Assembly (NCBI GenBank): GCA_043228905.1
Contig: JBHGNT010000016.1
Location: forward strand, 2,914,001-2,978,000
Direction: 5' to 3'
From: Azolla caroliniana
Taxonomy: Eukaryota > Plantae > Polypodiophyta
DNA: 64,000 bases
Each line of letters opens with the position of its first letter. The first letter of the stretch is position 1. This document shows, in pieces, positions 6,312 through 41,571 of the stretch. The position numbers and the translations under genes are program-made. The notes below the pieces were generated by a model. It was not told the origin of the DNA, searched no databases, and was given only the letters and a program-made list of their open reading frames with translations.

Positions 6312-7008
6312 GAGAGAAGGCCAAATTTTTATTCTCAATTTGGACGAGGTAAAATCGTCCATGTATGCCAAAGGTCTCAAAGTTGAGACGAATATCGAGT
6401 TGTGGCACAAGAGAATTGGCCACATCAACCTCCAATGGCTTCGAGCTATGCAATCGAAGGGAGTCGATTTGGAAGGTCCACAATAATAAGGTCATTGATC
6501 AAAACCAATTGCATGAAGTTAGCTTCTTTAAGCAATCCCTCAACAATCTCTATTTGATTGTCTGCAACTTACAAACATCACATTGCAAATTTACAATCTT
6601 TACTTTGAGTGCTTCTAAGCTCTTTAGTGTCTAATCGACACTTCTATATTTCTCTTTATTCTTAGTGGGTTTTCACCTCACTTTGAGGTTTCCCACTAGT
6701 AATAAAAGTGTTACTAACAAAAAGAAGAGATACGTTTGGGGTGGATTGAAACAGAAGAGAGCAAATAATGTCCATTTTAGACAGCCATAGAAGAAAGAGA
6801 GAATTATATTGTCTTTTTTAATGATCAAGATGACACATAATGATGTTAATTTACATCATCCATCCATCAATTGCATTTGTATTACAATCATTAGTAGGTT
6901 TGAAAAGTAGACAACAAAATCATTGTAAAACACACACATAACTATGTTGCAACAAAAAAGCAAAGACTTTAATACAAATAATCAATTTTAAAGGCAAACT
7001 TAGGTAGA

Positions 7009-11368: not shown

Positions 11369-14004
11369 CTAAGCTCTAGACACTTTAATCTTGGGCATGG
11401 CTTTCTTCATCTGACGCAGTCTCTCCTTCTCTTCTCTCTTGCGGAGTACTTCCGTAGCAATTCTGGACTCAGAATTTTCAAGTGCTTTCCTTCTTTCTTC
11501 CTTCCTCTTTTGCAAGGCTTCCTGACGAGCACTCTGGGCTTCTTTGAACGCTTCTTGAGCTACTTTTGCTCTTGCTGAATCAGCCTTTGAGCGAAGCTAT
11601 AATATACAAACAAGGATGCAAATTTAGTTTGCATCAGAACATCAGTCGCTCAATCTTTAACATAATATATATGGTAAAAAAACTTTTGAACACCACCAAA
11701 CTTTTTCTTTATTTCCCTTAATATCCCTGAGTTTTCATTATTTCCGTAAAGTCATTCCTTCAAAGCAACTATATGTGCTATTTGACCAAGTTATTGGTCA
11801 AGTCATCCCCTTTCCCCAAGTCTCTTATCGCTCAAATATATGAATGTTATTTGCAATATTATGTGGTGAATTCATCCATTTTATCTGTTCCAATGGTTAA
11901 CCAAGGACATCTGGGGAAACAGTGGAAACTTAGGGGTATTTCAAAGTTTTTTCATGCATATATGTGTAATCATTACTCACCTGTGCATTCAGCTTGTATC
12001 GACCAACAAGGTCAATATAGTAAGGTACTAGTGCGATCAGACGAGACATATCTGCCATAGCGTGGATTGATGGCAGAGTAAACTTGAACTGAAGTATCTT
12101 CTTATGTGAACCAATGGGAAATTCATCTGTAAAATGTAGAGATACAAAATTGCTTCCATATTTTTGAAAAGCTTTCTCACCAAAAACCTGATCATAACAA
12201 GGAGTAGTTAGTCCAGGAAATGGTGCATACTTATCACATATCTTATTAGCCTGCGTTGAAAGACAGGCAATGGCTTACATATTATATATTGGTCCTACTC
12301 TAATTTGAATGGATTTCTAATGGAATATGAATTGGTTTCTACTTCAATCTCTCATCCAATCTGAGTCAGTTTCTAATACGATATGCATTAATGTCTAGCC
12401 CAATATGCATCAGTCTCTAATTCAATATCACTATAAAAGAAATAAACAAAAGAGATCATTAACTATATTGGGGGTTGCAGAACCTTGTCCAATCGAAAAC
12501 CAAGTTATATTGCAATATGTTGTTTGATACCATCCACATATTGATTTCCAAGATAAGACATTAAAATGTTGCCTTAATGTACACCCCATATTTTGTATTG
12601 TTATAAGAAAAAATGATCCATCTTTCTCATTATGTGAGAAGACCATATCTAATAATTGACAATCTAAAACAAAGAATAATAATAAATATTCATTAATTAA
12701 CACACAATTGCATACTGCAAATTCCCTTGATTCTTTTACTTAATATCCATGAGAAGAGCTAATCTACCAAACAAACAAAAGGAACAATATCACTTAGCAT
12801 AAGACCATACCTGATCAATAACAGCATCAGTGAGAAGATCAATCCCTAATTCTCGCGATTCTGAAATAAAAACAAGTTCTTCCGATAATCCTTTCCGTTG
12901 TTGAGACTGAACTGGAGCAAAAGTCTGAATATCTCTCCACTCTTTCACCATTGCTTTCACATTCTTCTTTCTAACCAGAGCAAATGTTATAGGCTCCATA
13001 TTCTCATCATTCATAAATACATCAACAGTGATTTCATCTTTCCTGGGGCTTATGAAATACCACATACAAGCAATAAGATCGTGTCTACATTGTAAATCCA
13101 TGGTGGCTAGAAGACCTTTGCAAAATCTTCTTCCACTGGCATAGAATTTGAAGAGATTTTGGCCTTCTTTGATAAGGAGAGGTGAATCTGCTTCTGGTCC
13201 CGTTCCGAGGAGACTGAAATTCTTCTCAAAGATGCAATCTTTGCTTGCAAATTGTGCGGCCCAAGCAAGAACAATCTTCTCGTTCTCTTTTTTTCCAAAG
13301 AAGTAAGCTATGGCAAAAACGATAAGAAAACATATACAAGCTATCTCAAGGATGTAGTTCCGAGGATCAATTCTGCTTTGCACATTCTTTGGATCTTGAT
13401 TTGAAACTTCAGAAGACAGATCTGATGGAGAAGAAGAAGAAGAGGATGATGATGATGACGCTGAAGAAGAAACTGTTTCTTCTTCTTGTTCAGGTAAACC
13501 TTCGAACTCGTCTTCGTCCCAATATTCATGTCTCTTAGTTGCTGCTGGGGCTGAAGGTGAAGATGAAGGTGCAGAAAAAGTCAGAGTCTCATGGGTCTGA
13601 GAGCTCAGCGATGGTGTCTGATCAGAAGTTTCTATAGCATCTTCTGCTGCACCTATTTGTCCTCCTTTAACTTCTTCGTCTCCTTCTGTTTCGATCAGTG
13701 ACGAACGAGAAGGAGGGCCTCGATCCGTTTCGAAACCAGATTTTCTGTGAAGAGAAGGAGGGGGGGGAGGGGTAGAAACCATGGAGAGAGGTTCTTCGTC
13801 TGCTTCTTCGGATTCATCGCCGAAACCTTCGAAGTCTGGGACGGAGGAGACAGCGATGGCGAGGGCGGAGGTGCGAGCGATCTCTTGACCTAGAAGGGAG
13901 AGGATGGATACAAGAGCGATCCACCACCAAAGGCGATCCATACCTGGGAGGAAGAAACCCTTCAGGAGCCATTGCAGAAAGCTTCGACGCCCCGAATTCG
14001 CCAT
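11369..14004 (-). CDS. CCDC47: CCDC47 / DUF1682 family ER membrane protein (PAT complex subunit homolog), about 542 aa
   Basis: Exons 14004-12811, 12187-11981 and 11596-11369, all GT-AG and phase 0. Signal-like segment, acidic luminal region (WDEDEFEG), TM segment, YASGRRFC...LQCRHDL, and a C-terminal basic coil ending KKAMPKIKVSRA*. Confidence 0.9.
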
Positions 14005-14027
14005 AGCCACGAGCTCTCTGCGAATCT

Positions 14028-14067
14028 CTTCTTCTTCTTCTTCTTCTTCTTCTTCTTCTTCTTCTTC
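14028..14067. repeat. (TTC)n microsatellite in the CCDC47 5' UTR region
   Basis: Direct read of the TTC run just upstream of the ATG at 14004. Confidence 0.9.
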
Positions 14068-16835
14068 TGCTTCTATTGCTACTGCTACTGCTGCTGCTTT
14101 TTTTTTCTTTATCTTTTTGTTCAGAATTTTGGCGAAAAAACGAAACCTCAAAACATGCCCCTCATTCTCTGGCCTGAGTTTTACTAAATTTCATATAATG
14201 CCCCCCCATCTCTTTCTTTGCACTTTCACTTTCTCTTCTGTGTTTTTGTCCGATGAGGCCCATACCAGACCTCTTCCTTGGCTTCAAATCTTATCCTGCC
14301 TTCAATTCGGATCATCCCCATTTCGGAAAAGAAACGTTCTAGAGCCTTCTATGTAAAGCTACCAAGAATCCCTGATCTTCAGAGGAGTCGTATGATATGA
14401 ATGTGGATCGTTTTCGAAGTCTGGTCTTTCCCTACAACAATGGAGCTGCTTGTAAAGCAGTTATGTCGTGGTTTCATGGTTTGGTTTTGGCCCTAACCAA
14501 ACCATTGTCATTTACGCATTTCAATCAAGGATGTCGCCTGCTCTCATCGGTTCATGCATCGATGTTTGGAACAAATGTCCGGTGAGGCTTGTAAAAGAAG
14601 AAGACAATGAAGAGTTTTATCTTTAGTAATTCAATCAACGTGCTTTGTTTTACAATTATGATGTGGTGGTGCTTTCAAGAAGTATTGCACATATACAGAC
14701 AAGCTTATGAGCAGCTTGAATGACTTTTGCGTGCATAATAAGCTAATGTGTCAACATCTCCATATGTAGGTTATGTTGGTCAACGCTATAATAATGATAA
14801 ACCATATACTGCATGCAACAATGAGCCATATGAAATGATAGAAAGTTTCAAATACGTTGGTCGTGAGGTTGCCTCGCATCATGGAGAAAAGAATGTACTT
14901 TTTGGCACTTCGAAGCAGACAAATTATGCAATGAAGGCGAAATAAACAAATGTAAGTCCACAAAAAATCCATGCAACAAAAGAGAAATCAACATGTTTTT
15001 TTATCTTGGCGGACAATAATGATATATATCCAACCAACTTCTCTTTTCGTCTTTGTATATGTTTTTTCAACCTCCACCTTCATTTCGCATGTTTGATTAT
15101 CAAAATACTCATTCACATGTTGGCTAACGTTGCACTTTGATGAGGACATGTTAATGAAGTAAAATAAGCAAGTAACTAACTAATTGAGTCAGGGACCAAA
15201 AAAGTAAGGAAAATATTTTGAGAAGAGAGGAAACTGAAAGACATAGATTTGTTGACATGAAAAGCCAACATCTCTAGAGATAATTAGATCACATTTTATG
15301 GTTTAAGAGGAACCTTGGAGTATTGAAATTGTTTGTTTGTGTGATGTTGGGGGTATTTCACCAAGGTAAATTTGGAAATTGTATCTTTTTCATCTTCGGA
15401 ATATTTGGGAGGATAAGGTAATGGTGATTTGTTGTATCACCCAGAGCAAAGGACACGATACAAACATAAAATACCATTGGTGTCCCATACCACCAAATAT
15501 TTCCTCAAGTCATACATTGGTTGTTGAATAAATTATCTAAATAAGATATCTTAGGCTCATTGTGAGAGTCTGCTTTATATAGCCCAACGCTTAAGGTCCA
15601 TATGAGTTTGTCCTGGTTCCGAAAGTGTCATGTCATGGCACCTTTTATAGACATGACCTATAGACAAGTTCTATAGCTAATTTTAATGGGTTAAGGGTAG
15701 GATAATTAGGATGATAGATTGGAACAATATACCCTAGAAACGGGACAATGATTAGCCATATAATATTTTGGCATAATGATGAGATCAAAATGTAAACCAA
15801 AACAATTGATCACCATTGGTAAGTTTTCAAATAGAGACACAGGGATAGTATTAGAAATTAAAATGTTTGATGGAGAGGCTAGAGAACTCAACTTGGTTTG
15901 TCACAATCATAAATTTGGCATGTGCATCAAGACATTGTAATGACATAGATTCTACATATTCATAGAAACCACAATGTAAACAATCCATATTTGATGATAA
16001 ATTAGGCATTATGTGCTACTTAATGTGTTAGAATATTGGATATAGTCACAAGTTGATTGTATGTTGGATGCCATGTATCATATATTGGACATGTCTTTAG
16101 AATTTATTGCCAAAGAACTCAACATGATACAAGAATGAGACCATGGCATTACTTATTATACTTTCACAGACTTCAAAACCCTTTTGTTTTTCACTCTCTC
16201 TCCATTTATTGCGGTTTTGTAGATATTAGGTGCAAGATATATCCACTTCCACATTGAAGTACATAGAAAATGCTACATTTATTTGGATCCCACCTTACTT
16301 TTCCATTCAACACAACAGAGGTGAAGAGGGAACTCCCATACATAAATTAGGGAAGATCTTAACTATCCTATATGGGTGCTAGCTTTGTTTAATGAGATAC
16401 TTAATTTTATGAGTATTATTTTTGTCAACTCCAATAGTTATCTAGTTATCGCCTTGATGCACACTACCTTGGATTATTATTTTATGTAAATGCATCAAAG
16501 GTGAGAGGGCTCATCACTTTTATGTGGGGAGAACTTAGAAGTTAACCCTATCTAGTGTGTAAAGAGTGAGAAGTCATTGGGTAATTTATCTAATTAAGTA
16601 GTCAATGGATGAGCATCATTTTTAAGTATATAGTTGTAAACGTACACTCAACAAATTTAAAACTAATAATTGCAAAGGTGTGGGCAATTTGCAAGGTCTA
16701 GAATGCATGCTAAGAAAATTGCTTTCAAACATGTCATGTATCAACAAAAGATGTAAATGATTTTGTAAACTCAACAATTGAAAATCTCCTTTTTTTTAAA
16801 TTGCACTTCTAACACTTCGTCTTGGGTTCAAAACC

Positions 16836-23606: not shown

Positions 23607-26600
23607 TCTTGAGAGATCAAGCTCAACTTAGTTTAGTTAGTTAGTCAACACATGTAACTTAGTAGTTACCTAGATAGAATCTAGTTAGTGTGTTGACCAT
23701 AAAGCCTTAAATAGGATTTTGTACTCGAGTGGGATACATTGTAGATCCACCACTCCATGCTCATTTAATATAGGACTTACACGTTGTACCTATATTCTCC
23801 TAGCACATGTGCACCCTTGCACATGAAACCTATATATACCTCATTGAATGTATTTTTGTATTTGATGATAGTTGATGATATTTACCTTTTAACATACTTT
23901 ATCATCCCCCATCTTGTTTTTGTGTTCATAAGTGTACTTCTCTCTCTCTTCCTCTCACGCACACATACACGCACATATCACTTAATCTTCCATTATGTAA
24001 TCGCTTAACTTAATCACTTAATTAAGTAATAATTATTCATTAATTAATTACCTAATCCTTAACATGGTATTAGAGAGTGTGGTTTAGCATATCCACTAAG
24101 CCCACCCGACACTCCGTGATTGTGTTCAAAACGCCGACGACAAATCCGGTTATCCGCTATCGTAGTGCCGCTACGTAGCACGTATACGTGATCGAAGGAA
24201 GAAAAGCAAAAAGAGAAGACACTAATCAACATGAACACACAAATGGGTAGCTCGCTCCCTAGTGAAAAGTTAGACTAGAGCAATTATTCGTCTTGGGAGT
24301 ACAAGATGACCCAATACCTCATCGGACAAGGGTATTGGAGCTACGTCAACGACGCTCAAGAAAATCGACCCGACTCAAAAAATGTTGACTATGCAACATG
24401 GGAGCAAGCGGCGAGTCAAGTCATGTATTGCTTGGCAACATGTGTTCACGACCACATGCTTAGCCACATTCGAGACGCCAAGACGCCCAAAGAGGCGTGG
24501 GAGAACATAAAGAAAATGTTTGCCGCCAACACGACCGCCCGAAAGCTTCAACTCCGACAAGAGTTGAACAACATTCGGCAAAAAGACATGTCTGTGTCGG
24601 ACTACACCGCCAAGATCAAGAGCATTTGTGACTCGCTTGGCTCCATCAAAATAAACGTCGACGAAGACAAGTTGGTTCAAGTATGCTTGGGCGGCCTCAC
24701 CATTATGGACGACAATCTTGGTGAGAGAAAACCCTCTGTCATTCTTCGACCTCCAATCAATGCTATTGGTCGAACAGAACCACGTCTAAACCAAAAGCAA
24801 GACGTCGGAAGGACAAATGTTCTTCTCGAATTCAGACGGTGGCCGAGGAGAAGGTCACGACAGTAGAAGAGGTCAATTCGACCCATCACGCGAAGGGAAC
24901 TCAAACCTTCATGGAAGCCATCGAGGAACCTTCAGAAGAAGGGGGAGCTTCCACGTTGAACATGATTGGCAAATGAGGCCCGCAACTTGTAATTATTGCA
25001 GCAAAATAGGCTTCTACGAGGCGGAGTGTCGGAAAAAGAGAAGTCAGTCGGCTTCAACAAGTCGACACCTCACAAACTACGCATCGAACTCCGACCACGA
25101 CAACCGTAGCGGAATGTTCATGAATCACGCGTCCAATTCTGACTACGACGATCGTAGTGAAATGTTTACAAATTATGCCCCAAATTCCAACTACGGCAAC
25201 CGTGGCGGAATGTTCGTAATGAGGCATAGAGCGAACTCTATGACGGTCTCCAACTCCGCAAGCACCTCCAACTCAGAAGACGTGTGGTTCGTTGATTCCG
25301 GCGTCTCACATCACATGACATCTCACGAAGAGTGGTTTCCTTATTTACGAACGCCGGATCGACCCAGCTTCATACAGACGGGAGATGACACCACATACCC
25401 CATTCAACACATCGGAAATGTCCCATTCGAGAAAGAAGGGTGAGCAAACTTGCATCAAGAATGTCTTGCACGTGCCCACAATAACGAAGAATTTGGTCTC
25501 AGTCGGCCAAATCATGGAGCAGGCATGCAAGTCCGCTTCAACAAAGAAGGATGCTTCATCGAGAAAGATGGCCGACTCATAGCGAAGGGGCGGAGAGACG
25601 GCCGAATGTTCATCCTCAATTCGAATGAGGTGAAATCGGCAATGTACGCCAAAGGTCTCAAAGCTGAGACAAGCATCAAGTTGTGGCACAAGAGAATCGG
25701 CCACATAAACCTCCAACGGCTTTGAGCTATGCAAACAAAAGGAGTCGTCATCGGACTTCCGACATTCGAGTCAAAACGAGTCGATCGAGTATGCGAAGCG
25801 TGTCAACTTGGCAAATAACATAGACTTCCATTCCCCAAGGAGAGCCACGCAAGTAAAGGCCTCCTTGACGTCATACATTCGGATGTATGGGGACTGGTTC
25901 AAACGCCAACGATTGGCGGATGCCGATACTACGTAACCTTCATCGACGACTACTCGCGCTACGCGTGGATCTACCTAATGAAGAAGAAAAGCGAAGTGTT
26001 CTCCCACTTCCAAAAGCTCAAGGGGCAAGTCAAAAAAGAAACCGGTCGGCACATTCAATGCCTACGATCGGATGGAGGCAAGGAGTACTTCTCTGACAAA
26101 TTCACCTCCTACCTCCAAAGTGAAGGCATTTGAAGAGAATTCTTGTGCCGACACACACCCCAACAAAATGGAGTCGCCGAAAGGAAGAATCGGCAAATAC
26201 TCGAGGTAGCACGTGCCATGATGCATGAGAAGCACATGCCGAATTTCTATTGGGGCGAAGCGGCATCCACGGCCGTCTATCTCATGAATCGATGCACCAC
26301 TAATGGAGTGCATGAGCTAACTCCATACGAGCTCCTCATCGGAAGGAAGTTGATCCTGTCGCACCTCAAGGTGTTCGGAAGCATTGCGAATGTACGCATC
26401 CCGAACGAACAACAACAAAAGCCCGACGCGAAGTCGGAGGAATGTATCCTCATAGGATACTCGTTCGAGAAGAAAGCATACAAGTGCTACAACCCTTCTA
26501 CCCGAGCGGTTCGGGTAAAGTCGAGACGTAGTCTTCGATGAGTCCGCATCCTGGTACGCACTAGAGACAACTTTGACTCCAACTCCGCTCGACCCAGAAT

Positions 26601-27678
26601 CCGCCGAACAAGAGGTAGAAGATGGAGATCACTTCGAACACATGTTCGAAGAAAGTCTGATTACGACAAAGCCTAGTGGGCCACAAGAGCCCCCACGCTA
26701 CCCAAGCACGCCGCGGCCAAGTAAGAACTTGGACAAAGGCAAAGGTAAGATGCCCGAATACGAAGTCGACCACCCCGACGACAATGATTCGGATGGATCG
26801 GCTCCCTCACTAGACAGTGAGTTCGGTGTACCCTTCATGCGTACACTTGGAGTAAAGAAGGCGTTCACATCGGCGAGCAAAAAACTTCGATGCTCTTCTA
26901 GAGAGAAGAATCTCGTCGCTCGGCTCGGCTACAACGAGTAGATGGCCCATCATTACGCCTTTATGATGAAGGTAGTGGCCGAACAAGAGCCCAAGAGCTC
27001 CACCGAAGCAGCTCGTAACCCACGATGGGTGGAAGTAGTCAACCTTCACCCACACGCTACAAGCCTTCGTCACCGACTTGAGGGGGAGGACTTGAGATTG
27101 CCACGGCGAACAAAGCCAAAGGCCGGACGAAAGCCGCACAGAAGCCGACATCGAAAGTCAGACAACGCCGAAAACAACGCCGGATGTCGGACACCTCACA
27201 CTTGAGCTTGAGGGGGCGTGTTGAGAGATCAAGCTCAACTTAGTTTAGTTAGTTAGTCAACACATGTAACTTAGCAGTTACCTAGATAGAATCTAGTTAG
27301 TGTGTTGACCATAAAGCCTTAAATAGGATTTTGTACTCGAGTGGGATACATTGTAGATCCACCACTCCATGCTCATTTAATATAGGACTTACACGTTGTA
27401 ACTATATTCTCCTAGCACACATGCACCCTTGCACATAAAACCTATATATATACCTCATTGAAGGTATTTTTGTATTTGATGATAGTTGATGATATTTACC
27501 TTTTAACATACTTTATCATCCCCCATCTTGTTTTTGTGTTCATAAGTGTACTTCTCTCTCTCTTCCTCTCACGCACACATACACGCACATATCACTTAAT
27601 CTTCCGCTACGTAATCGCTTAACTTAATCACTTAATTAGGTAATAATTATTCCTTAATTAATTACCTAATCCTTAACA
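23607..27678 (+). mobile_element. Ty1/copia LTR retrotransposon with RT and most of RNase H deleted (non-autonomous, degenerate)
   Basis: LTRs 23607-24064 and 27219-27678 (about 12 substitutions by eye; 5' TG mutated to TC). TSD TCTCC (23602-23606 / 27679-27683). PBS TGGTATTAGAG (iMet-like) at 24065 and PPT before 27219. Contains gag, zinc knuckle, PR (WFVDSGVSHHM) and INT ([24 protein letters not shown]). Confidence 0.95.
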
Positions 27679-29749
27679 TCTCCCCTAATAGTAAATATTC
27701 CCAAAATAGATTGTACAATCCCACCACATGTTATGCATACATAAACCTTTGTGAGGGTAGGTCAATAATAAGTGATGGGTATGTTCCGATGTTAAAAAGG
27801 GACTAATGTTATTGGATAGAAGGAATAATAGGTGCATGCACTATCATGATCTTGATAACTAATAAATGGAGTGTCTTTTAGAAAAACACATATATCAGTG
27901 GGCTTATAAATATAAGGCCTAGCTAGCCTCGTGAAGCACGTTAAATTAGAAGGTTGAAATCTAAAGACACTAGCAGTGCGGGCTAGGATTTCATCACAAT
28001 GGTCGTGTTACCTATTTCAAGGTACCAGTCATCCTAACATTGGTGGCAGGTTGGCTATGTCTTCATCATATCTCAAGGGAGGTATGTACTATGGAGGATC
28101 GAGTTCTCCTATCCAATCTATTCACATTTCTCTTGCTTTTATTTGGTCTATTGATTAGTAATAAACTCTTAACACCTCATTCGTCCCAACAATTAAATTT
28201 AATTTGTGTCATTGACAATTAGCTAAAAAAACGAGCCAACAACATTAGTTGATTCCACACAACAATACATGTGCAATCTCATTGTATTGGTGAAAGTGTT
28301 GAACTCATCATTCACACAATGATGAGTAATCAATGATAACAATTATAAACAATAATTCATTTGCACAACTAATGAAGCTCTCAAACCAACTATTGATTGC
28401 ACTTGTTGATTCATCAACTAAGTAACATGACACAAACTCCCCATGTAATCAATTACAATTGGGTCATTGGAGAACGTTGTTATGGCATTGAATAATCTAT
28501 CTTATATCGATGAGATGTAAGGGCAATACATGGGTTGTTACTCTTGCGTGTCACACTATTAAGAGAATGATTTGTTATGAATGTTCAAGACAAAACTATT
28601 TACAAATAGGCATAGTTCTCTTCACCCACAAATACTTCTAAGGCTCTTTTGAGAAGGGAATTCCCTTGCATTTTTCATTGTGCAGCATAATAGCAATTCA
28701 TGAGAAAATGTTGCAATTTATAGGTATTTAGTAGAAGTTTTATATATAATATTTGATTTTATTCTTGTTGTAAATGTTTTTCAACTTGCCACTTCAAACA
28801 TTTGATTGATGTTGGCATGGATGAGAGCACATTTTTGTTGAGTGCTCTTGATTATTGTAAAACATGTAATGAGTTGCATTGAGTTGTGGTTTAACGTGCT
28901 TTCCCATGCGGGAAGTGGTCATTGTGGAGACTTCGTTGACGTAGATTGTGGACATTCTTGCTAGGATTTCATATGTTCGTTAGTGATACGTGTGCACCTT
29001 TAACTAACATCATAACTTTATGGGCATTGGGAGTGTCGAAGAATGGTATTGTGTTCAGTTTGTAAGGGTTTAAGACTTGAAAGCCATTCTATACAGATTA
29101 TATAGGGTTAAACATACCAAGGGAAATGACAAACATGGCAAGATGTTAATAGTTTTTTTCGACATTGAGAGACATGTGAATAACTATTGTGTGGTACGGT
29201 GTCTCTCATGGTGGATTGTAGTGAGAGTGATAAACAAAGAAACCGTGTTGTACAACCAAAAAATGTTCGCTAAGTCAATGATATGCATTCGGATATGGAT
29301 GCCATCAACCAAAATGAAACACGAGAATCAATATAGTTGTTCGTCCCTCATGAAGGCATTAACATGGATGGGTTGTGGGTTACTATGATGATTTTCCAAT
29401 TAATACAAACAAGGTTTGTATGGTTGGACATGTTTATAGAACTAGAATATCCCTAAAGTGGGAATTGTTGATTCGGTTATTGGGGGTTCCACGTACCAGT
29501 TAGACAAATAGTACAATCGCCTCTTTGATGCATTACTACCACTAGATAGAATATTTGTGGGATAAGTATCTATCAAATTCTCTCATAGACAATAAGTCTA
29601 CACAGACACACACACACACACACTCTCTCCCTCTCTCTCTCTTGGTAAAACACACAATTATATTAAAAAACGTGTGTAAAAAATACTTACAATGGGTGTG
29701 ACAATGGAGTATGGTCACCCACTAACTACACTACACTACATGGGTATTG

Positions 29750-29969: not shown

Positions 29970-32546
29970 TGGGTTGTTAAAGATTGCTTGTGGAAGCGTT
30001 AGAAAGAACAATACACAAAGAGAGAGAGAGAGAGAGAGAGTACGCGGGAGAGAGAGTGAGAGAGAGAGTAGGATACACTATTCTTCAAAATTATATGAAT
30101 ACTCTGTGCTCTGTATCTACAACGCGCTCATCAGCGCTATTTATACAAGTCCACACGGGACTGTTAGAAGTACGGTGTACTTCAATGCTCACACGAGCAT
30201 CTAACACTAACTACGAGACTATAACTGCCTATTAGTCTAACCTATACTAGGCTTCCGGTTACGGATTGGATCCGCCATACTGGCTCCCCAGCTCACCGGT
30301 CCTTACTGCTTACCAGCTCAGGCTTATTCAGCCGATCCAGCTCCGGTTGAGCTTGCCGCTAAACACTCCCCCCTCAAGCTCAACCTGAGGTAGGGTCGTA
30401 GTGTCAACCTCTGTGGTAGCCGGTTCTTCCAACCGACTTCTCTTGGCGTCGCTCGCGCTCCTTGTCCAGTCTGGTCCCGTTTGTTGTGACCCCTTTGGTT
30501 TTGTGCGCCTCGACCTTCGGCATGTCTGCTCAATAGGCCGATCTCAGCTCCTTCGCTGATATGACTCCGACGCTTGCCGATCCGTCGGTTCCTCTGCGAT
30601 GGCATCGACTTCTGCTGCGTCCGTGTCTCCTTGGCCTCTTGTTAATCCGATTCATTCAGATCCGTTTGTTGATCCGAATCGGTTGTCTCTGACTCGTTCC
30701 AGCTCTTGTCCGAATTAGTATTTTCCAATTCGATTTTCGGCTTCAGGCCTCTCACCACATCGGACCACGTCCGGGTCTTGGTCTTCTCCGTGCTTCCCTT
30801 GGCTTCTTCAACCGGTTCATCGAAGTCGAATGAAGAATTCGACTCCGCATTACGATCGTGATGACCTCCGCATAGCATGCACTTCTCTTCCTGAGTGTAT
30901 ACTTCTTCTTCACATCCGCTCACTCCGACCTATTCGGATGTGCCGACTTCCTTCGTCGACTCGGCTTCATTTTTCTTCTTGTCTCCACCTCTACCGATTC
31001 TTCTCTTACCTACGGGTTCAACAATTTTTTTCCCTTTGCCCGTTTCGGTAGTGTCTTTGCCCTTGCGTCTCCCCCTCAAGTGCGGCACGTCGAGATGCTG
31101 AACACCAAGCATTTCGGTAAAGTGTTGCAACTTGTCCGACCCGAGTGGCTTGGTGAAGATGTCGGCAACTTGTCGATCCGTGTGAACATACCGTTGTCGC
31201 GTTGTTACACGCGTGCGTGGAGAAGGGCGGAACCACGGGGGTCTTGGACTAAGGAGAAGGGGAGAAGGAATAGGACTTCGGAATGGAGCTTAGCACAAGA
31301 AGAGGAAGAATGAACAAGAGGAAGATGGAGGCCAAATGCTCAACAAGATATATTAGAACCGAAAACCGATTACAAAATGGCGGCCGCGTAGGCCGCACCA
31401 AACGACTATGATAAACCCGAAACCCTAATCCGACGAAGAAGAAAAGAAACCCTAACTAAGGAACCCTAAACGAAATGGTATACCTCACTCACACTCAAAA
31501 ATAAGGCAACCCCCACAATGGTGCTCTTCCTCTCCTTTTATAGCACAAGGAGAGAAGACCGTTTACAAAAAGGGTGCTACAAAATATCCCCTTTCAATCA
31601 ATGGGGATATTTCCCTTGATTTTAGGGGAGGTGGGAAGGATGGGTCTTAACTCCCACCTCTACACGAACTACTATGTACCTATCTCTCTCTCTCACGTGG
31701 ATGTGCGCGCAAAAGCACATCACCTTTACACTTTACAAATCCTAAGGTGCATTTCTAGCACCATACTTATCACTATCGATAAATAGAAATACAACATGTT
31801 GATGTGCAACGTTGCACATCGCGGTTTTGCTTGCTTCGCTCGGTTTTCCGCCTATGGACGAAAATCTTCACGACATCCGCCCCCACCTAACCGCACATCC
31901 ACCGGTATGTGCCAAAAGGGGAACAAAACGCGAGATTTTCGGCCAAGGCGGCCAACCGAGCCCTTGACAACCTCGTGGGCTTGCCCGGCTTCGTCTTCCA
32001 CTTCGAGCAAGTCCACCCCGTCCACACGAACCACCGTCGCCTTCCGGCCCACCATCTCCGCCGAATGGTCTCGAACCGTCGGCTCCATCCGATCCGCCAC
32101 ACTCGACGATGCTCGCCGAGTCGTTGCCTCCACCTGATCCGCCACGTCCACCGTGTTTCCTCGAACCACCGACTACACTCGGACCGCCATATCCGATGCC
32201 CGCGCTTTCCTCCCCGTTCGGTCCTCCCGAACGCCGTTGCCGACCCTTTGTCCGCCTCGCATATCCTCCGGATCCGCCTTTTTCGTGCCGCGCACCTCGT
32301 CGTGCCGACTCTTCTCGCTCCGCGCTTGCCTTCCGTAGGCTTTCCCCGTACGTCGGTGTTGTCCTCCGAATGCGTGCTCGTGCTTCGGTCCTTCGATGAC
32401 CCCATCATGCATTTTTCGCCTTCCCTTTGCTTGCCGTGCTCTCTCGCCGTAGAGCATACCATCGTTCCCGTGCTCGTTGCTTGGCCCTCATGCGGCCGCA
32501 TTGCACGTTTCGCATTCCGCTCCTCTTCGCGTACCCTTTCGGAAAG

Positions 32547-35500
32547 TTACCCTTCTTCCCCGACCTCCGTTTCGCTCGAAGGAACACCCTCTTGGCCCTC
32601 TTGGCCCGCTCGACCGCACACATCCTTCGTGATGTCGTGTTCGTTCCTTTGGGCGCATACATCTTCGTTCACCGCGACCTCCCGTATGCCTCTCTCGGTG
32701 CCTTCATCCGTTGTGGCCTTCGTCCCCTCGCCGCCACCGTCCGCCACTCTTGGTCTCACGTCGGCACTCGCGCCGATCGCCGGAGTCTCTATAGCCGGTG
32801 TGGAGGATCCCTCTCGGGTCTTATCTTCGTGGCCGCCGGTCTTAGCCTCTCCGTAGGCCACCTCTTCCCACCAATCTTCCCTAGCATCGTGCCGGGTCTC
32901 GTCGTCGCCGCCTTCCTCCTCGTATTCGCCTCTCGAAGGCGTGATCCGACCGTCATCTTCGGTCGCTCGATGTGGCTCCTTCGTAGGCATGCTTGTGTCT
33001 TGGCCCTCCATCGGCCGTATTGCATGCATCTCGTCTCGCTCTTCCGCCGTAGACCCGACCTCCGTGTCGGTCTTCTCCTCCTTTGTCGCCGTAGCCCGTT
33101 CCGACACGGGCTCGCCGTCTTGGACCCACCCGTCCACCATCTCGTACCGGATATCTGTTCTGGTAACCTCGTACGCTCCGGCCTCCGACTCCTCGCTGCC
33201 ACCCGCCGTTTCTCCGGTCTTATGTTGATCCGCAACCGCCGTAGTCTCTAGAGTGGGTATGGAGGGTCTCGTTTGTTTCCGTTTTTCCCCCGAACCATGG
33301 TCGTCGTGCCCGGTTAGCCTCCATCTCGCACTTACCGGCTCCCATCGTAACCGTAACCGTAACCGTAACCGTAACCGGCCAATCGGTCTGGCCGGCTTCC
33401 TTCGGTTTGGGCCCGGTTCGCCGGCCCTTACTCTCTTCTTCTTCCGTGCCGTATTCCGGTCGGGTCGGTTCCCGACTCTCTCCTCGTTTCCGCTCCGGTC
33501 CTCTCCGTCGGACCCACCGTATACGCCCATTCCGGGCCCCGCATACTCGTCTTCGTATGCGCTCTCTCCGGGCCTCACCTCCTCACGGTCACCGCCCATC
33601 TCTCCGGTCTCACGTTGGCATTCGAGCACAACCGCCGAAGTCTCCGGCCCCGGTGTCAAGGGGTCTTGCCTCCGTCCGCTCCAATCTTCCTTCTCGTTTC
33701 CGTTGCCCGCCCTGCCGCCGTCACCTCCCGTCGCACTAAGCCTCATGCCGGCACTCGGGCCGGCCATTGGAGCCTCTAGGATTGGTGTGGGTAAGGACCC
33801 GGCACCGCCGCTTGTTGTCTCCGTAACCGCTTTCGTTCGGACGTCGTTGTCCGCGGCTCCCCCATCTCCGATTCCGTAAGCCTCTAGTATGCTTGCCACC
33901 ACCTCTTCTTCGCCGTTCTCCGCATCATTTTGTTTGCCCGCCTTGCCGCCGCCACCGCCCGTCGTTCTAGGTCTCGTGCCGGCACTCGGGCCGACCGCCG
34001 AAGCCTCTAGGGCCGGTGTGTGGAAGGTCGCGGCACCACCGCTCGCCTCCTCTCCGCTCGATGTTTTGGGCCGCCGTGCCCCGAATCTTCCGCCCACTTT
34101 CGAAGTGGCGCTCTCCGCTTTGTAGTCACCGGCCTCATCCTTGGCCGTCCATTCGCCGCAAGACGAGAGGGTTGCTCGCTCCGCACCCTCTCCCATGTCG
34201 TCGTCGTTTCGGTTGCCCGCCTTGCCGCCGCCACCGTCCGTCACTCTAGGCCTCTCGCCGGCTCTCGGGCCGGGTGCCGGAGTCTCTAGGACCGGTGTGT
34301 GGAAGGTCGCGACACCACCACTCCTCTCGTCCGTAGCCACCTCCATTCGGACATCGTCGTCCGTGGCTACCCCGTCTTCGGTTTCGCAAGCATCGAGTAT
34401 GCTTGCCGCCGCCTCTTTTTCGCCGGTCTCGTCCTTATCTCGGTTGTCCGCCTTGCCGCCGCCACCGTCCGTAGCTCCAGGTCTCGTGCCGGCACTCGGG
34501 CCGACCGCCGAAGCCTCTAGGGCCGGTGTGTGGAAGGTCGCGACACCGACGCTCGTCTCCTCTTCCTCCTCCATTTCGCAAGCCTCGAGTATGCTCGCGA
34601 AATCCTCGTAGAACGTTTCGGGCAACCGCGTCCCGAAACTTCCGCCCACTCTCGAAGTGGCGTCCATCGCTCCGTAGATATCGGCCTCGTCCATGGCCGT
34701 TCTTTTTCCCCGAGATGAGACGGTCGCTTGCTCCGCACCTTCTCTCGTGTCGACGCCGTGGTCGCCCGCCTTGCCACAGCCACCGCCTTTCACCATAGGT
34801 CTTACGCGGGCACTCGGGCCGGCCGCCGTGATCTCCAGGAATGACGCGTGTAAGGTCGCGGGACCGCCGCTCGTCGATGTAATGTCCGCAGCCACCTCCG
34901 CTCGGACGTCGTTGTCCGTGGCTACCCCGCCTCCGTATATGCAAGCATCGGTTATGCTTGCCGCCGCTTCTTCCGCGGTCTCCTTACCGTTGTCTCGGTT
35001 TCCCGCCTTGCCGCCGCCACCGTGCTTTTCCCTCGGTCTCACGCGGGCGCTCGGGCCGGCCGCCGGGGTCTCTTGAACCGGTGCGTGGAAGGTTGCGGTA
35101 CCGCCGCTTGTCTCCTCCGTACTCGATGATTCGGGCCACCATGTCCCGAATCCGCCATGTCCGCTCGAATCGGCGATCGCCGCCTCACCGTCCCCGACCT
35201 CGTCCTCGGTCGTTCTTTCCCCCCATGTCGAGAGGGCGGCTCGCTCCGCACCCTCTCCCGTGGTACCGATGTACCATTCTCTTTCGGCCTCCGCATAGGC
35301 CCCGTCCTCCATGTGTGAGGAAGCTCCTTCCTCCGCGTCCTCCGATCCGCTCGGGCCCGACCCCGCAATAAGCCATTCTTCGGCTTCGATTTTCGCCATT
35401 ACGAGCCCGCACGCCTCCCGTATTAGCGCTTGTAGGTCGAGCCCCTCCAAACCGGTTCGCGATGAGCTCTCGTCCGGCGGCATGGCGTAGTCGGTCGTCG

Positions 35501-36152
35501 CTCTCTCTTCTCCCCCGCTCGCGGGCCGTGTTGTGGCCGACCGCCTCGCCTCATGTTGCCGACACACCCATTCCACTTCGGGCCACTCCTCGGTGAGACC
35601 ATGCGCCCCATAATCGTCTTGAAGCTCGAACATGATGTCCATCCTCTCCTCATGATGGACCGTCTCCAAAAATAGGAGGACTTTGTCCGCCCCCACCGAT
35701 CTTCGTTCCCACTCCGAGAGTTGAGAGAAACGACGCTCGAACTCTCGGAATGCCTCTATTGCGCTCCGATGGCGCCTCGCCGACGCCATCCACCGATCGA
35801 ACTCTCGCCGACCTCTTACCTCCGATTCCGCGCACCCGTATGCCTCCATTAGAGCCCCTTCAAAGGACTCCCACGATTCGTGAGCTTCTTGGAGCTCCTT
35901 GACCTCCTCGTACTTTGATGCGGCCGCCGCTCGACGAAAGAACTCTAGCCTCGTCGCTTCGTCCACGCCCATCCCCGTCATTTCCGCATCGTAGGCTCTC
36001 AAAAATTTTGGGACCTCCTTCCCATCGAACCGGCCGACTAGACGGACCACCCTTTCGACCGCTTGTTGAGCCGCCTCTCGCCTCGCCCTCTTCCGTCCGG
36101 CGTCCATCAAGATCTTTGTCATCATCTCCTCGAAGTCGAAGCCTTCCTCCAT
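32547..36152 (-). CDS. 1201-aa Gag-like protein with a long repetitive acidic/Gly-rich extension
   Basis: ATG about 20 nt after the PBS. The N-terminal ~200 aa (GRFDGKEVPKFLRAYDAEM...SWESFEGALMEAYG...FREFERRFSQLS...GLTEEW) resembles retrotransposon capsid Gag. It is followed by repeated GGxATFHTPxLE...GPSA.xRP...GGGGKAG modules. No CCHC knuckle seen. Confidence 0.75.
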   Translation of the reverse strand: MEEGFDFEEMMTKILMDAGRKRARREAAQQAVERVVRLVGRFDGKEVPKFLRAYDAEMTGMGVDEATRLEFFRRAAAASKYEEVKELQEAHESWESFEGALMEAYGCAESEVRGRREFDRWMASARRHRSAIEAFREFERRFSQLSEWERRSVGADKVLLFLETVHHEERMDIMFELQDDYGAHGLTEEWPEVEWVCRQHEARRSATTRPASGGEERATTDYAMPPDESSSRTGLEGLDLQALIREACGLVMAKIEAEEWLIAGSGPSGSEDAEEGASSHMEDGAYAEAEREWYIGTTGEGAERAALSTWGERTTEDEVGDGEAAIADSSGHGGFGTWWPESSSTEETSGGTATFHAPVQETPAAGPSARVRPREKHGGGGKAGNRDNGKETAEEAAASITDACIYGGGVATDNDVRAEVAADITSTSGGPATLHASFLEITAAGPSARVRPMVKGGGCGKAGDHGVDTREGAEQATVSSRGKRTAMDEADIYGAMDATSRVGGSFGTRLPETFYEDFASILEACEMEEEEETSVGVATFHTPALEASAVGPSAGTRPGATDGGGGKADNRDKDETGEKEAAASILDACETEDGVATDDDVRMEVATDERSGGVATFHTPVLETPAPGPRAGERPRVTDGGGGKAGNRNDDDMGEGAERATLSSCGEWTAKDEAGDYKAESATSKVGGRFGARRPKTSSGEEASGGAATFHTPALEASAVGPSAGTRPRTTGGGGGKAGKQNDAENGEEEVVASILEAYGIGDGGAADNDVRTKAVTETTSGGAGSLPTPILEAPMAGPSAGMRLSATGGDGGRAGNGNEKEDWSGRRQDPLTPGPETSAVVLECQRETGEMGGDREEVRPGESAYEDEYAGPGMGVYGGSDGEDRSGNEERVGNRPDRNTARKKKRVRAGEPGPNRRKPARPIGRLRLRLRLRLRWEPVSARWRLTGHDDHGSGEKRKQTRPSIPTLETTAVADQHKTGETAGGSEESEAGAYEVTRTDIRYEMVDGWVQDGEPVSERATATKEEKTDTEVGSTAEERDEMHAIRPMEGQDTSMPTKEPHRATEDDGRITPSRGEYEEEGGDDETRHDAREDWWEEVAYGEAKTGGHEDKTREGSSTPAIETPAIGASADVRPRVADGGGEGTKATTDEGTERGIREVAVNEDVCAQRNEHDITKDVCGRAGQEGQEGVPSSETEVGEEG

Positions 36153-36172
36153 CTCTTTCTCCCTTGCCGCCC

Positions 36173-36190
36173 TTCACGTCGGGTTCACCA
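36173..36190 (-). promoter_or_regulatory. Primer-binding site complementary to the tRNA-Trp 3' end
   Basis: The + strand reads TTCACGTCGGGTTCACCA, matching the 3' 18 nt (including CCA) of plant cytosolic tRNA-Trp as I recall it. It lies 4 nt inside the 5' LTR. Confidence 0.85.
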
Positions 36191-39100
36191 AAGATGTCGC
36201 GTTGTTACACGCGTGCGTGGAGAAGGGCGGAACCACGGGGGTCTTGGACTAAGGAGAAGGGGAGAAGGAATAGGACTTCGGAATGGAGCTTAGCACAAGA
36301 AGAGGAAGAATGAACAAGAGGAAGATGGAGGCCAAATGCTCAACAAGATATATTAGAACCGAAAACCGATTACAAAATGGCGGCCGCGTAGGCCGCACCA
36401 AACGACTATGATAAACCCGAAACCCTAATCCGACGAAGAAGAAAAGAAACCCTAACTAAGGAACCCTAAACGAAATGGTATACCTCACTCACACTCAAAA
36501 ATAAGGCAACCCCCACAATGGTGCTCTTCCTCTCCTTTTATAGCACAAGGAGAGAAGACCGTTTACAAAAAGGGTGCTACAAAATATCCCCTTTCAATCA
36601 ATGGGGATATTTCCCTTGATTTTAGGGGAGGTGGGAAGGATGGGTCTTAACTCCCACCTCTACACGAACTACTATGTACCTATCTCTCTCTCTCACGTGG
36701 ATGTGCGCGCAAAAGCACATCACCTTTACACTTTACAAATCCTAAGGTGCATTTCTAGCACCATACTTATCACTATCGATAAATAGAAATACAACATGTT
36801 GATGTGCAACGTTGCACATCGCGGTTTTGCTTGCTTCGCTCGGTTTTTCGCCTATGGACGAAAATCTTCACGACACCGTAGTTCAACTTCACCGCTTAGG
36901 ACCCGTTCACGCCCGAAGTGATAATGCACTTCTATGTGCTTTGTGCGAGCATGGAACACAGGGTTCTTGGCGAGTTGCATGCTGATGAGGTTATCGCAGT
37001 AGATCATGATCGGGGTCGGTACCTCGATCCATAGGTCTTGCAGTAGTCGCCGAAGCCAAATGGCTTCGCAGGTGGCAACGGTCGCACCCCAGTATTCAGC
37101 CTCAGTGCTGGATAGAGCCACTGTTGCCTGCTTTTTGCTGCTCCACGCAACAGCCGCGCTCCCAAGAGAAAACATAAAACCGGAAGTTGAGCGACGATCC
37201 GTTGCATCGCCAGCCCAGTCGGCATCCGTGTAGCCGACAAGCTCTTTGGTTATACCTTGCCGGTATAAGAGCCCCCGGTCCTTAGTGCCGCTTACATACC
37301 TCAGTATTCGTTGCACGCACTGAAGGTGCTCCACGGTTGGCTTCTGCATGAATTGGCTTACCACTCCGACCGGATAGCTAATGTCGGGTCGGGTGATGGT
37401 CAAGTAGATCAGGCTTCCGACTATTTGTCGGAACCGTTTCTCATCGCAGGCTGGTCTGGAATTGGGACGGATCTTCTAATTCCGGTCCAGGGGTGTGGAG
37501 ACAGGTCGACATTCCGTCATGCCGAACTTGTACAATATATTCAACACATAATGGCGTTGAGAAAGCAATATGCCGTCGGGGGTGCGGATCACCTCGATCC
37601 CCAAAAAATAATGAAGGTCCTCCAAGTCCTTTATATCAAATGCGTCCAACAACTGGGACTTGACACGGTTGATTTCCAGAAGACCTGGGCCGGTGATGAC
37701 TAAATCATCAACATAGAGTAAGATACATACCGGACCGTTTGAGCCTTGATGGATGAACAGGGAAGAGTCTGACTTAGAGGCAACAAACTCCATCTTTCGC
37801 AACCAGTGCGTGATCTTAGCATTCCAAGCACGGGGGGCTTGCTTCAAGCCATACAACGACTTCCTCAGCCGACATACTGCCGACTTGTTCACCTCCGATT
37901 GAAATCCAGGGGGCTGAGTCATAAAGACTTATTCTTCAAGATCTCCTTGAAGGAAGGCATTCTTCACATCCATCTGATGAAGATGCCACCCCCTTGCCGC
38001 AACAACCGCCAGTACCACACGAACCGTCGTCATCTTCGCTATAGGAGCGAAGGTCTCGTCGTAGTCGATTCCGTGGGTCTGTGCATATCCCTTCGCCACT
38101 AACTGGGCCTTGTACCGGTTAACTGTACCGTCGGCATTGTACTTTACCTTGTACACCCACTTGCATCCGATCGGTTTACAGTGACGGGGAGGGTCAACCA
38201 GGTCCCAAGTTCCGTTGGCATCAAGTGCCCGCATTTCTTCCTCCATAGCGGCACGCCAATTTGCGTCCTTTGCCGCTTCTGCGTAGCTCTCCGGCTCACG
38301 CACTTCCGCGACCTTGGTCATGTACGCATAATGATGCGCCATGTACTCGTTATACCCGTACCATTTAACGGGATCCTTCTGGCGGGTGGATCGGCGTAAC
38401 TCACCGTTACCCGATATGAGACCCTTCTTGGCCGGTTCGGTCTTCGTTCCCAAAGATCTGCCTATGTCCTTGCCGAAGTCATATGCGCACCGATCCAACT
38501 CGTCATTGCCGGTCTCGAATTCCGGCATCTTCTGCTTCCCTTTCTCTTTGCGTGTGAACCGTCTCCTCGGTTCCTTGCGCAGGGAGAGCACGACAGAGTC
38601 TCCACTACTCGTCGTCTCATCATTTGACTGGTTGGACTGATCCAGTCTCTCATTCGGTCCGCTTATCCGGAATGATTCCGGACTCTCATCTTGAGTCCCG
38701 ACTTCATCTTTCTCTACCTGGGCCGGCTCGGGCTCACTAGCCCCATCCTCCGACATCGGGTCGGGATCGGAAGTCGGAGTCAGTAAGGAATACCACAATG
38801 CTGATTCATCAAACTCAACATCTCGGACCTGCTTCGTCCAGGGGTTATAACACTTATACCCCTGTTGTTCTTGAGCATAGCCGACTAGGATGCATTTTTC
38901 CGATTTTGCATCTAGCTTTCTCCGCTTCTCATCCGGCACATGTACATAGGCTATGCAACCGAATATCCGGAGGTGTCTCAAATTCGGCTTGCGCCCGAAA
39001 TACAGCTCGTGAGCTGACACCTTGTCCCCAATCCGGTTCTGGATGTAAACGACCGTTTGGACCGCCTCTACCCAGTAGAACTTGGGCATGCTCTTTTCCT

Positions 39101-41210
39101 CCAGCATTGCCCTAGCCGCGTCAATCAGCGACCGATTCTTCCTTTCGGCCACACCGTTTTGTTGCGGTGTGTATCTGCATCTGAATTCTCGCCGAATTCC
39201 TTTTTGTTGCAGATAGTTGTTGAATTGGCCGGAAAAGTACTCTTTTCCACCATCCGACCGTAGGCATTTGATCTTCCTCTTCGATTCCTGTTCCACCATC
39301 TTCCGGAGGCTCTGGAAACACTCGAAGACTTCGCTCTTCTGCTTAATGAGGTAGATCCATGTATGCCGCGTGTAGTCGTCGATGAAGGAGACGAAATATC
39401 GACTCCCGTCAATGCTAACATTTTGTGTCGATTCCCACACATCCGAATGGATAAGATCGAGCTTGTTACGGCTTCGATTTCTTTCGGTGGGGAATGGAAG
39501 CCGGTGTTGCTTCCCGAGTTGGCAGGCTTCACAAATCTGGGCTCTCCGGCCGATAAACTTCGGCAAACCGAAAACGACTTGTTTCGTTTGCAGGTCTTGA
39601 AGCCTTTGGTAGTTGACGTGGTCGATCCGCTTGTGCCACAGGTCGATATCCGACTCGACCTTCTGTCCTTTGGCAAACAATGCGGTGCCGACATCATTGG
39701 TGTTGAGGATAAACATCCTCCCATCTCTGCGCCCTTGCGCAGTAACTTCGCCCTCATCCTCAATGAAGCACCCGAGGTGCGTAAACCGCACCTGCATCCC
39801 CTGGTCGACGATCTGTCCAACCGACACCAGGTTCTTCGTGATTGTCGGAACATGTAATACATTCATCAACTTCCCCCTCTGTCCGACGTGGCTCAAAGGG
39901 ACTTCTCTGACGTGCACGATCGGGTGGGGAGTGTCGTCTCCGGTTTCGACAACTCCCGGTTGATCTGGCTTCTCCAAAAAGGAGAACCACTCCTCGTGGC
40001 TCGTCATGTGGTTCGATGCGTTGGAGTCAACGTACCACACTTCCTCCGATTTGGAAGTGGTCTTCTTCATTGAGTTTGCCTTGTGCTTCATCACCAAGCC
40101 TGGCCCCTTACCGTTCTTGGATCCTCCCAATCCGTTTGCGTAGTGCGAGCTTTGCCGGCCTCCCTTACCGGTCTTGCCGGATCCGGATTTGTCTGAATCG
40201 ACACGCTTTCTCCAGCACTCGCTTTCCCTGTGGCCCTTTTTGCCACAGTACCAGCATTCCGTAGCGGAATAGTCTTGCCGGCCTCTAGCACCACCTTGAC
40301 TCCCCCTGCTTGTGGAAGTCCCGGAACTGTTGTCGGCACGCTCACTCTGCCTTCGTTCCTGCTCTTGTCGGCCGCCTCCATTGCGTGCCGACTTGCCTCG
40401 TCCACCATGCCCGCGGGACCAATCCGCTCCCGTGTACAACATCCGGTTGTCTGGGGATGCACTGGTAGATGCACCGACGTGGTTCTCCTCTACAAGGAGC
40501 ATCGACTGTAAGTCGAAAAATGAGGGCGTATTCTCCCTTGTACAAACCGCAGTCCAGAAAGCTCCGAACTTGGACGCCAGGCCTCCAAGACAGACCTACA
40601 CCATCTCGTCTTCCTCTACAGTGACGTTAATAGAGGCAAGCGAGTCACAGATCCCTTTGATCCGGTCTGTGTAATCTGCCACCGACATGTTCTTCTGTCG
40701 AACATTGCTCAACTCCTGTCTGAGTTGCAGCTTCCGGGTAGTGGTGCTTGCGGCGATGACCTTTTTCAAGTTTCCCCAAGCATCCTTCGGTGTCTTGGCG
40801 TCACGGATATGGCTGAGCAGCTGGTCATCGACACTAGACGCGAAGCAGTACATCACTTTGCTTGCCGCCTGTTCCCACACTGGGAAGTCCTTGTGTGTCG
40901 TCTCCGGTGCTGAGTCATTCACTCCGTCGACATAACTCTAGTAGCCATGCCCAAGCAGGTACTGGTGCATCTTGTATGACCAAGATGCGTAGTTGGTTCT
41001 GTCGAGCTTCTCCATCGGGAGCGACGTAGCCATACCTTTGTCCATTTCTCCTTTTGTGTCTTGTTTTCCGATCTGTTAGGGTTTCCTTCACAAGCGTAGA
41101 TGTCTGCAGCAGAGGTTCTCAACCCACGCGCTCTGATACCATGTTAAAGATTGCTTGCGGAAGCGTTAGAAAGAACAATACACAAAGAGAGAGAGAGAGA
41201 GAGAGAGTAC

Positions 41211-41270
<60 letters not shown>

Positions 41271-41571
41271 AGGACACACTATTCTTCAAAATTATATGAA
41301 TACTCTGTGCTCTGTATCTACAACGCGCTCATCAGCGCTATTTATACAAGTCCACACGGGACTGTTAGAAGTACGGTGTACTTCAATGCTCACACGAGCA
41401 TCTAACACTAACTACAAGACTTTAACTGCCTAGTAGTCTAACCTATACTAGGCTTCCGGTTACGGATTGGATTCGGCATACCGGCTCCCCAACTCACCGG
41501 TCCTTACTGCTTACCGGCTCAGGCTTATTCAGTTGATCCGGCTCCGGTTGAGCTTACCACTCAACATGGGT

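Follow-up and report, generated by a model that had tools for sequence, protein, structure and literature searches.

The locus and its element

The window analysed here, i.e. the whole stretch of 64,000 nucleotides at positions 2,914,001 to 2,978,000 of contig JBHGNT010000016.1 (Azolla caroliniana, assembly GCA_043228905.1), carries at 31195-36875 on the minus strand a young Ty3/gypsy long terminal repeat (LTR) retrotransposon of 5.7 kb that lacks pol. Its two 681-bp LTRs (TG...CA) differ by a single mismatch, which at a moss substitution rate corresponds very roughly to an age in the order of 0.1 million years. The primer-binding site (PBS), preceded by a 4-nt spacer, pairs over 18 nt with a tRNA-Trp(CCA) encoded by the same genome, a purine-rich tract adjoins the 3' LTR, and the interior has a GC content of 0.63 and a CpG observed/expected ratio of 1.30 (flanks 0.63 and 0.47). 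This agrees with an initial annotation of the DNA, which had proposed a young, non-autonomous Gag-only element; the target-site duplication (TSD) that it reported is present (CCGT on the plus strand), although it is 4 bp and not 5 bp long. The element inserted into an older Ty1/copia element, within the part that codes for RNase H. Contigs from four runs cover it, which is coverage and not transcript evidence, and near-identical sequence is present in runs carrying two organism labels. The features are as follows.

29975-41566, minus strand: older Ty1/copia element hosting the insertion, LTRs about 92-94% alike
36876-36879, no strand: right copy of the TSD
36195-36875, minus strand: 5' LTR, 681 bp, with TATAAA at LTR position 334
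36173-36190, minus strand: PBS, 18 nt complementary to the 3' end of tRNA-Trp(CCA)
32547-36152, minus strand: open reading frame of the window copy, 1201 aa, ending at a private premature stop (32547-32549)
35529-36152, minus strand: Gag capsid head, aa 1-208, with N-lobe at about aa 45-107 and C-lobe at about aa 111-207
33694-35177, minus strand: six degenerate in-frame repeat units, spaced by 231-318 nt, all multiples of 3
33318-33485, minus strand: basic patch, about aa 890-945
32729-32802, minus strand: further core copy of the repeat unit
31887-32546, minus strand: continuation of the frame past the stop, 219 codons rich in Arg and Trp, predicted to be translated in most of the other copies
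31876-31916, minus strand: 41-nt block including the polypurine tract (PPT), 90-95% identical to the autonomous helper described below
31195-31875, minus strand: 3' LTR, 681 bp
31191-31194, no strand: left copy of the TSD, 4 bp, NCGN

The single giant frame noted in the initial annotation is open over 1201 aa, but its stop at codon 1202 is private to the window copy, being absent from the other copies compared and from the contigs of the four runs. As the frame resumes for 219 codons past this stop, the protein of the family would be about 1,400 aa long with an Arg-rich end. Behind the head, the repeat units are acidic and rich in Gly, Ala and Thr, and the basic patch includes, at 33346-33377, a (CGTAAC)5 microsatellite with a length that changes in whole-unit steps. 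The initial failure to recognise protease, reverse transcriptase (RT), RNase H, integrase or a CCHC knuckle was borne out, as the 1201-aa frame contains neither CCHC nor D[ST]G motifs and has no Pfam match at E<=1, and tblastn with the Pol of the helper found no match in the whole window. Pfam and ESM Atlas gave no match for the tail, a negative that demonstrates neither absence nor novelty. A tail made of decayed or frame-shifted pol was considered and rejected, as long tblastx matches are limited to the head and the PPT end; the last 260 nt are faintly like an integrase end when judged by eye only.

A young family and its probable helper

All 40 scored genomic matches to the head are 99-100% identical, and a 20-mer from it has 93 exact matches. 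The 39 loci fetched were chosen by likeness to the window element, so that the sample leans towards young copies, and one locus was apparently assembled twice. Two LTRs were found in 36 of them, with no more than four mismatches in 35 of these 36 and none in 18; a 4-bp TSD is present in 31, each time of the form NCGN. Elements are 4.4-5.8 kb long, and the interiors of the 36 copies align to one open copy at 94.8-99.3%. In 26 of 37 young copies the frame reaches the purine tract or the LTR, giving proteins of 1009-1468 aa. Some loci are composite: L080 and L081 (860-4490) are recombinants in which an 85% sister-lineage head is joined to a 98% young tail with the frame open, and L044/L045, L034 and L098 are tandem elements with a common middle LTR.

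Pol-less LTR elements must take reverse transcription and integration from a helper. The initial annotation had recommended looking for an autonomous partner with the same LTR ends and Trp PBS, and such an element was found. A search with pol returned 131 scored matches at 98-100%, mostly within uninterrupted frames about 1,167 aa long, and 19 of 20 fetched loci hold two-LTR elements of 7.0-7.3 kb (one of 6.1 kb), all 19 with a 4-bp NCGN TSD and 0-4 LTR mismatches. They encode Gag-protease, in which a protease motif and a CCHC knuckle are present, and, overlapping it, Pol with RT, RNase H and integrase. The two families share the LTR termini (the first 11 LTR bases and a terminal CGACA), the PBS and the 41 nt that adjoin the 3' LTR, with little else in common: within the LTR body alignment is confined to the last 40-90 nt, where 14 of 19 helper LTRs match at 75-85%, and the global LTR alignment is weak, yet scores above 50 of 50 shuffles. 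The helper-type junction between PPT and LTR has 1,368 exact matches, that of the pol-less type 206. This abundant and equally young autonomous element, which is in a recent burst, is from its sequence marks the likely helper of the pol-less family. L088 and L134 represent a further autonomous family of this kind, so that more than one helper is conceivable.

Two other origins were examined and set aside. A one-off deletion of the helper is ruled out by heads only about 35% identical to helper Gag and by the separate pol-less clade described below. As for a pol-bearing version with the LTR of the pol-less family, none of 40 loci found by the pol-less PPT/LTR junction holds helper-type pol inside the element; taken in genome order, these comprise 8 young, 27 sister-lineage and 5 short loci, and 4 of them have gag-pol matches that lie outside the element or belong to another lineage. 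As to the primer, tRNA-Trp-like 3' ends gave 63 matches altogether and form arrays at a spacing of about 0.9-1.2 kb (C8:17.80-17.82 Mb, C16:4.99-5.11 Mb and C5:10.11 Mb of genome G000), which are large clusters of the primer tRNA.

The head is a predicted retrotransposon capsid

The Gag-like head had been proposed to be a capsid, and structure prediction supports this. Residues 1-205 are about 35% identical to helper Gag, and head residues match 542 proteins at E<=0.001, several of which are Gag-protease polyproteins; Riccia and Physcomitrium supply named homologues. The predicted model (mean predicted local distance difference test, pLDDT, 89.9) retrieved Arc, copia or Ty3 capsids at all of ranks 1-10 in Foldseek, none of them at E<=0.001, and retro-type capsids at all of ranks 1-21 in VIA-align (best Z 10.1; root-mean-square deviation of single lobes 1.8-2.9 A), with the PEG10 capsid also among the fold matches. 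On this model the head has the two-lobed retrotransposon capsid fold.

In the Gag tree, 10 pol-less heads group in one clade (support 100/100), which sits on a long stem and has the helper as its sister (98/99), a placement that carries a long-branch warning. One pol-less clade on a long stem points to an old lineage, although its copies are young. Elsewhere in this tree P0087, P0163 (labelled Physcomitrium patens) and P0089 combine a Phygy-type capsid head with an acidic tail and lack knuckle and protease; the P0087/P0089 branch may, on its sequences, represent a parallel origin of capsid plus acidic tail.

Selection on the reading frame

The ratio of nonsynonymous to synonymous change (dN/dS) of the head is 0.56 against sister lineages and 0.54 on distinct shared changes, the latter set against a CpG-aware expectation in 31 copies, and these values indicate that the head is under purifying selection. 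In the tail it is 0.92-1.31 by region and 1.01 on distinct shared changes. Stops tell a different story: over 18 sister copies 13 new in-frame stops were seen where 98 were expected, every copy lying under its expectation, whereas the two off-frame controls came out as expected (183 seen against 171.5, and 189 against 160.8). Counted once per event, the tail has 5 stops against 13.6 expected and the C-terminus 1 against 8.0, and the deficit holds over about 20% divergence. Of the net indels, 9 of 9 shared and 15 of 20 rare ones preserve the frame; raw gaps had looked random (18 of 57 in frame) before adjacent compensating gaps were merged. The counts thus indicate that the tail frame is kept open by selection while its amino acids drift neutrally. 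That the protein is selected, as initially proposed, therefore stands for the open frame but not for the residues of the tail, and because these are unselected, the suggested role of the tail as a specific Pol-recruiting domain is unlikely.

Could the open tail simply be a by-product, left when GC-rich repeats expanded in a handful of fortunate master copies, and be free of selection at present? The tail dN/dS near 1, the nearly equal divergence of paralogous repeats across codon positions (0.21, 0.22, 0.26) and the small number of independent lineages all fit this idea. It has nevertheless been largely refuted already and we consider it very improbable: Markov simulations (300 at each of 3 orders) reached at most 847 aa and in 0 of 900 runs the observed 1201 aa, which means that openness is not an effect of GC content, and it is in-frame, not off-frame, stops that are missing, just as shared indels and all four large head deletions (see below) keep the frame. 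The initial annotation had listed random frameshifts in the tail, a unique deletion product and a match to a described family as findings that would speak against it; none of them holds for the first 1,235 codons or so.

Two further points do not fit the initial proposal as it was put: the last 180 codons or so are read in three frames (in 15, 10 and 1 of the 26 open young copies), and spread does not require a whole capsid, as single-lobe lineages show. A coding signal in the +1 frame at the C-terminus (0.5-0.7) is distrusted, because CpG decay in CGG codons could yield the same, and repeated T-F-H motifs were dropped as candidate protease sites as they show no extra conservation.

What does recur is composition. 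Basic C-terminal segments occur in all five profiled proteins of the pol-less clade, the acidic middle with basic ends returns in distant members, and the frame finishes with an Arg/Trp motif in P0005, P0006, P0007, P0014, P0165 and L031. Perhaps, then, the released protein is a mutualistic or scaffolding Gag, a capsid that has an acidic, disordered tail as well as basic ends for binding RNA and that helps to condense retrosomes, with composition rather than sequence under selection; a supply of Gag by a pol-less partner has been proposed for RLG_Quinta, as outlined in PMC11302176. We regard this as improbable. A shared product would bring little selection on single copies beside so many helper-type junctions, the Arg/Trp motif is gone from 11 of the 26 open young copies, and an acidic tail of 1,200 aa on each subunit would be hard to fit into a lattice.

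A natural series of deletions

Head deletions were surveyed in the 40 loci taken in genome order, of which 28 could be aligned at the head. The four distinct large deletions all preserve the frame and take away one lobe apiece: an N-lobe loss common to 9 of the 40 loci (57 marker matches), a separate N-lobe loss in one young copy, and two different C-lobe losses in 5 and 3 of the 40 loci. The lobe-loss copy L140 keeps 1143 codons open. L144, seen once, has identical LTRs and a TSD and lacks the first 520 nt or so of the interior, and thus most of the capsid.

Single-lobe Gag derivatives are reportedly known from Ty1, where p22/p18 restrict transposition. The single-lobe and tailed Gags could act on the helper as dominant-negative inhibitors, in the manner of Ty1 p22 or Drt2, and be kept in part for the benefit of the host, and a C-lobe-only lineage does exist, as does a fold match of the head to the C-terminal domain of the Drt2 capsid (PDB 9rxy; rank 11 in VIA-align). 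Of all the explanations considered this is the least probable, as the elements themselves transpose, with dispersed insertions and TSDs, and the burst of the helper is recent. The likeness to p22/p18 and to the Drt2 capsid C-domain is thus one of form, namely a single lobe that could join the helper lattice: those proteins restrict transposition, whereas the forms described here sit in spreading elements.

A proposed translated leash

The element is almost certainly a non-autonomous retrotransposon of Phygy type. What its long tail does is more tentative; the account that we favour, with slightly less than even confidence, is a translated leash that ties the nascent capsid to its own RNA and so draws that RNA into helper particles. 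The single frame would yield a capsid head joined to a long tail that tolerates changes of sequence, and either capsid lobe could attach to the lattice of the helper. The frame would need to be translated to its end to bring a benefit in cis, and Arg-rich or basic patches could stand in for the lost zinc knuckle. Helper enzymes, from the presumed partner, would then supply reverse transcription primed by tRNA-Trp and integration at NCGN. This account agrees with the conserved head, the interchangeable lobes, the free length and sequence of the tail, and the ban on stops. A benefit in cis is suggested because a Gag available to all would scarcely come under selection in individual copies next to more than 1,000 helper copies. 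In its sharpest form, Gag would act as a co-translational grappling hook, with either single lobe on a stop-free leash of 600-1,200 codons of free sequence, a version that we find possible but doubtful.

Several observations weigh against a leash. The frame closes early in 11 of the 37 young copies, including the window copy, and two young copies have a frame-closing deletion in common. The spread of lineages without the N-lobe or without the C-lobe would fit a little-used protein as well, and a head dN/dS of about 0.55 reflects weak constraint. S/N ratios within the young family gave no signal, in a young sample that had been chosen for identity of the head and from which a duplicate, a tandem twin and a recombinant (3 of 37 copies) were left out, and the copies used in the selection tests come from few related lineages, so that p-values overstate their independence. 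Ty1 Gag, as summarised in PMC3945221, shows no cis preference. Finally, a sister lineage with a closed tail (219 exact marker matches) ends its frame at about aa 480-488; in the three copies read, stops occur in all three frames beyond about aa 480, leaving some 2 kb untranslated. This lineage is older, with LTRs mostly 95-97% alike, and since it spread, a leash is not always needed.

Alternatively, translation itself may protect the RNA. If ribosomes run to near the 3' LTR, the transcript would avoid nonsense-mediated decay (NMD) or small-RNA silencing, the tail peptide would be a by-product and helper Gag would do the packaging. This explanation, which we judge rather unlikely, fits nearly as well as the leash: it predicts the same signature of purged stops with neutral amino acids, and it accommodates the purging of stops to the very end, the young copies that finish in three frames and are still open, the dispensability of either capsid lobe and a third-position GC content (GC3) of 0.68. 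Translation-linked silencing of a plant retrotransposon is on record, as outlined in PMC8892269. It is weakened by moss data, since long 3' untranslated regions in Physcomitrella are, as reported in PMC6009662, not predictive of NMD, and by the spread of the closed-tail lineage with its untranslated stretch. In addition, for most transcripts of the helper the stop would lie about 3.5 kb short of the 3' LTR, the head is under purifying selection, and a long untranslated region would be avoided more simply by deleting the tail. Our literature search found no paper on NMD in connection with non-autonomous Gag frames.

Comparison with known elements

The signature of Phygy elements, a 4-bp NCGN TSD and a tRNA-Trp PBS (Neumann et al. 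2019, PMC6317226), is shared by the element, and its Gag has a homologue in an autonomous element of the same genome that bears these marks too. As outlined in that source, however, Phygy elements encode a Gag-protease-RT-RNase H-integrase polyprotein in 7.7-10 kb, unlike the 5.7-kb element without pol, while the helper has the polyprotein domains in 7.0-7.3 kb. The element is therefore Phygy-derived rather than a full member. TatI elements also have a 4-bp TSD and a Trp PBS but carry an extra RNase H, and Pfam shows none in helper Pol.

The element resembles TR-GAG elements, as presented by Chaparro et al. 2015 (PMC4350172), in having LTRs, PBS, PPT, TSD and a single Gag frame, in lacking RT, RNase H and integrase, and in being apparently active. 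Unlike these, for which a size below 4 kb is stated, the family here measures 4.4-5.8 kb; that paper's own search range was 1-6 kb, and PMC13570524, which lists many Gag-retaining families, outlines such size limits as arbitrary. TR-GAG1 has a 433-aa frame with a zinc knuckle as against about 1,400 aa without one, and here a likely helper is present.

The initial annotation knew of no described family with this architecture, but a pol-less element with Gag plus an extra domain has been described in wheat. RLG_Quinta, the partner of RLG_Cereba (Heuberger et al. 2024, PMC11302176, as outlined there), is likewise an old pol-less Gypsy lineage whose one frame codes for Gag together with a domain whose function is unknown, with PBS, PPT and LTR termini in common with its autonomous partner, a Gag that has diverged from that of the helper, and recombination between sub-lineages (here L080 and L081). 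It differs in being a CRM element, whereas the Phygy-type element here is dispersed over all large contigs, and in the second half of its LTR, which is strongly conserved with the helper, while little is shared here beyond the LTR ends. Different, too, are the extra part, here about 1,200 aa of repeats that are neutral under a ban on stops, and the single-capsid-lobe lineages. By analogy, RLG_Quinta appears to be the closest known system, with a TR-GAG-like mode of working. Neither a non-autonomous Phygy family nor such a selection pattern turned up in our literature searches, with subscription papers outside their scope, and PMC7466625 and PMC6911290 contributed nothing on the element; repeat libraries may hold the family unnamed.

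Other features of the window

Another LTR element of about 4.07 kb (23609-27679) has LTRs of about 460 bp at 97% and no long frame. It contains a fragment of a Copia-type Pol beta-barrel (24790-25443), and its interior matches window positions 6312-6466 at 85%; it is possibly a shortened Copia. Frames of host genes encode a BURP-domain protein (7009-8133) and a CCDC47-like protein (12790-14190), and a degenerate, purine-skewed tandem repeat with a unit of about 142-170 bp occupies 595-1330.

Implications

Why Gag-only partners keep Gag is an open question, to which answers so far, such as mutualistic supply, are hypothetical. If the grappling hook were true, it would represent cis-preferential packaging into helper particles, which is thought to be lacking in LTR elements, and a clean natural case of selection for the length of translation and not for protein sequence. 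The clade forms a natural deletion series, comprising whole capsids, N-lobe only, C-lobe only, tails of about 270-1,260 aa and open as well as closed alleles, with a young helper burst alongside, and these natural alleles make cis packaging, RNA protection and shared supply testable against each other. The family is also a warning that a very long, selected reading frame need not encode a conserved protein.

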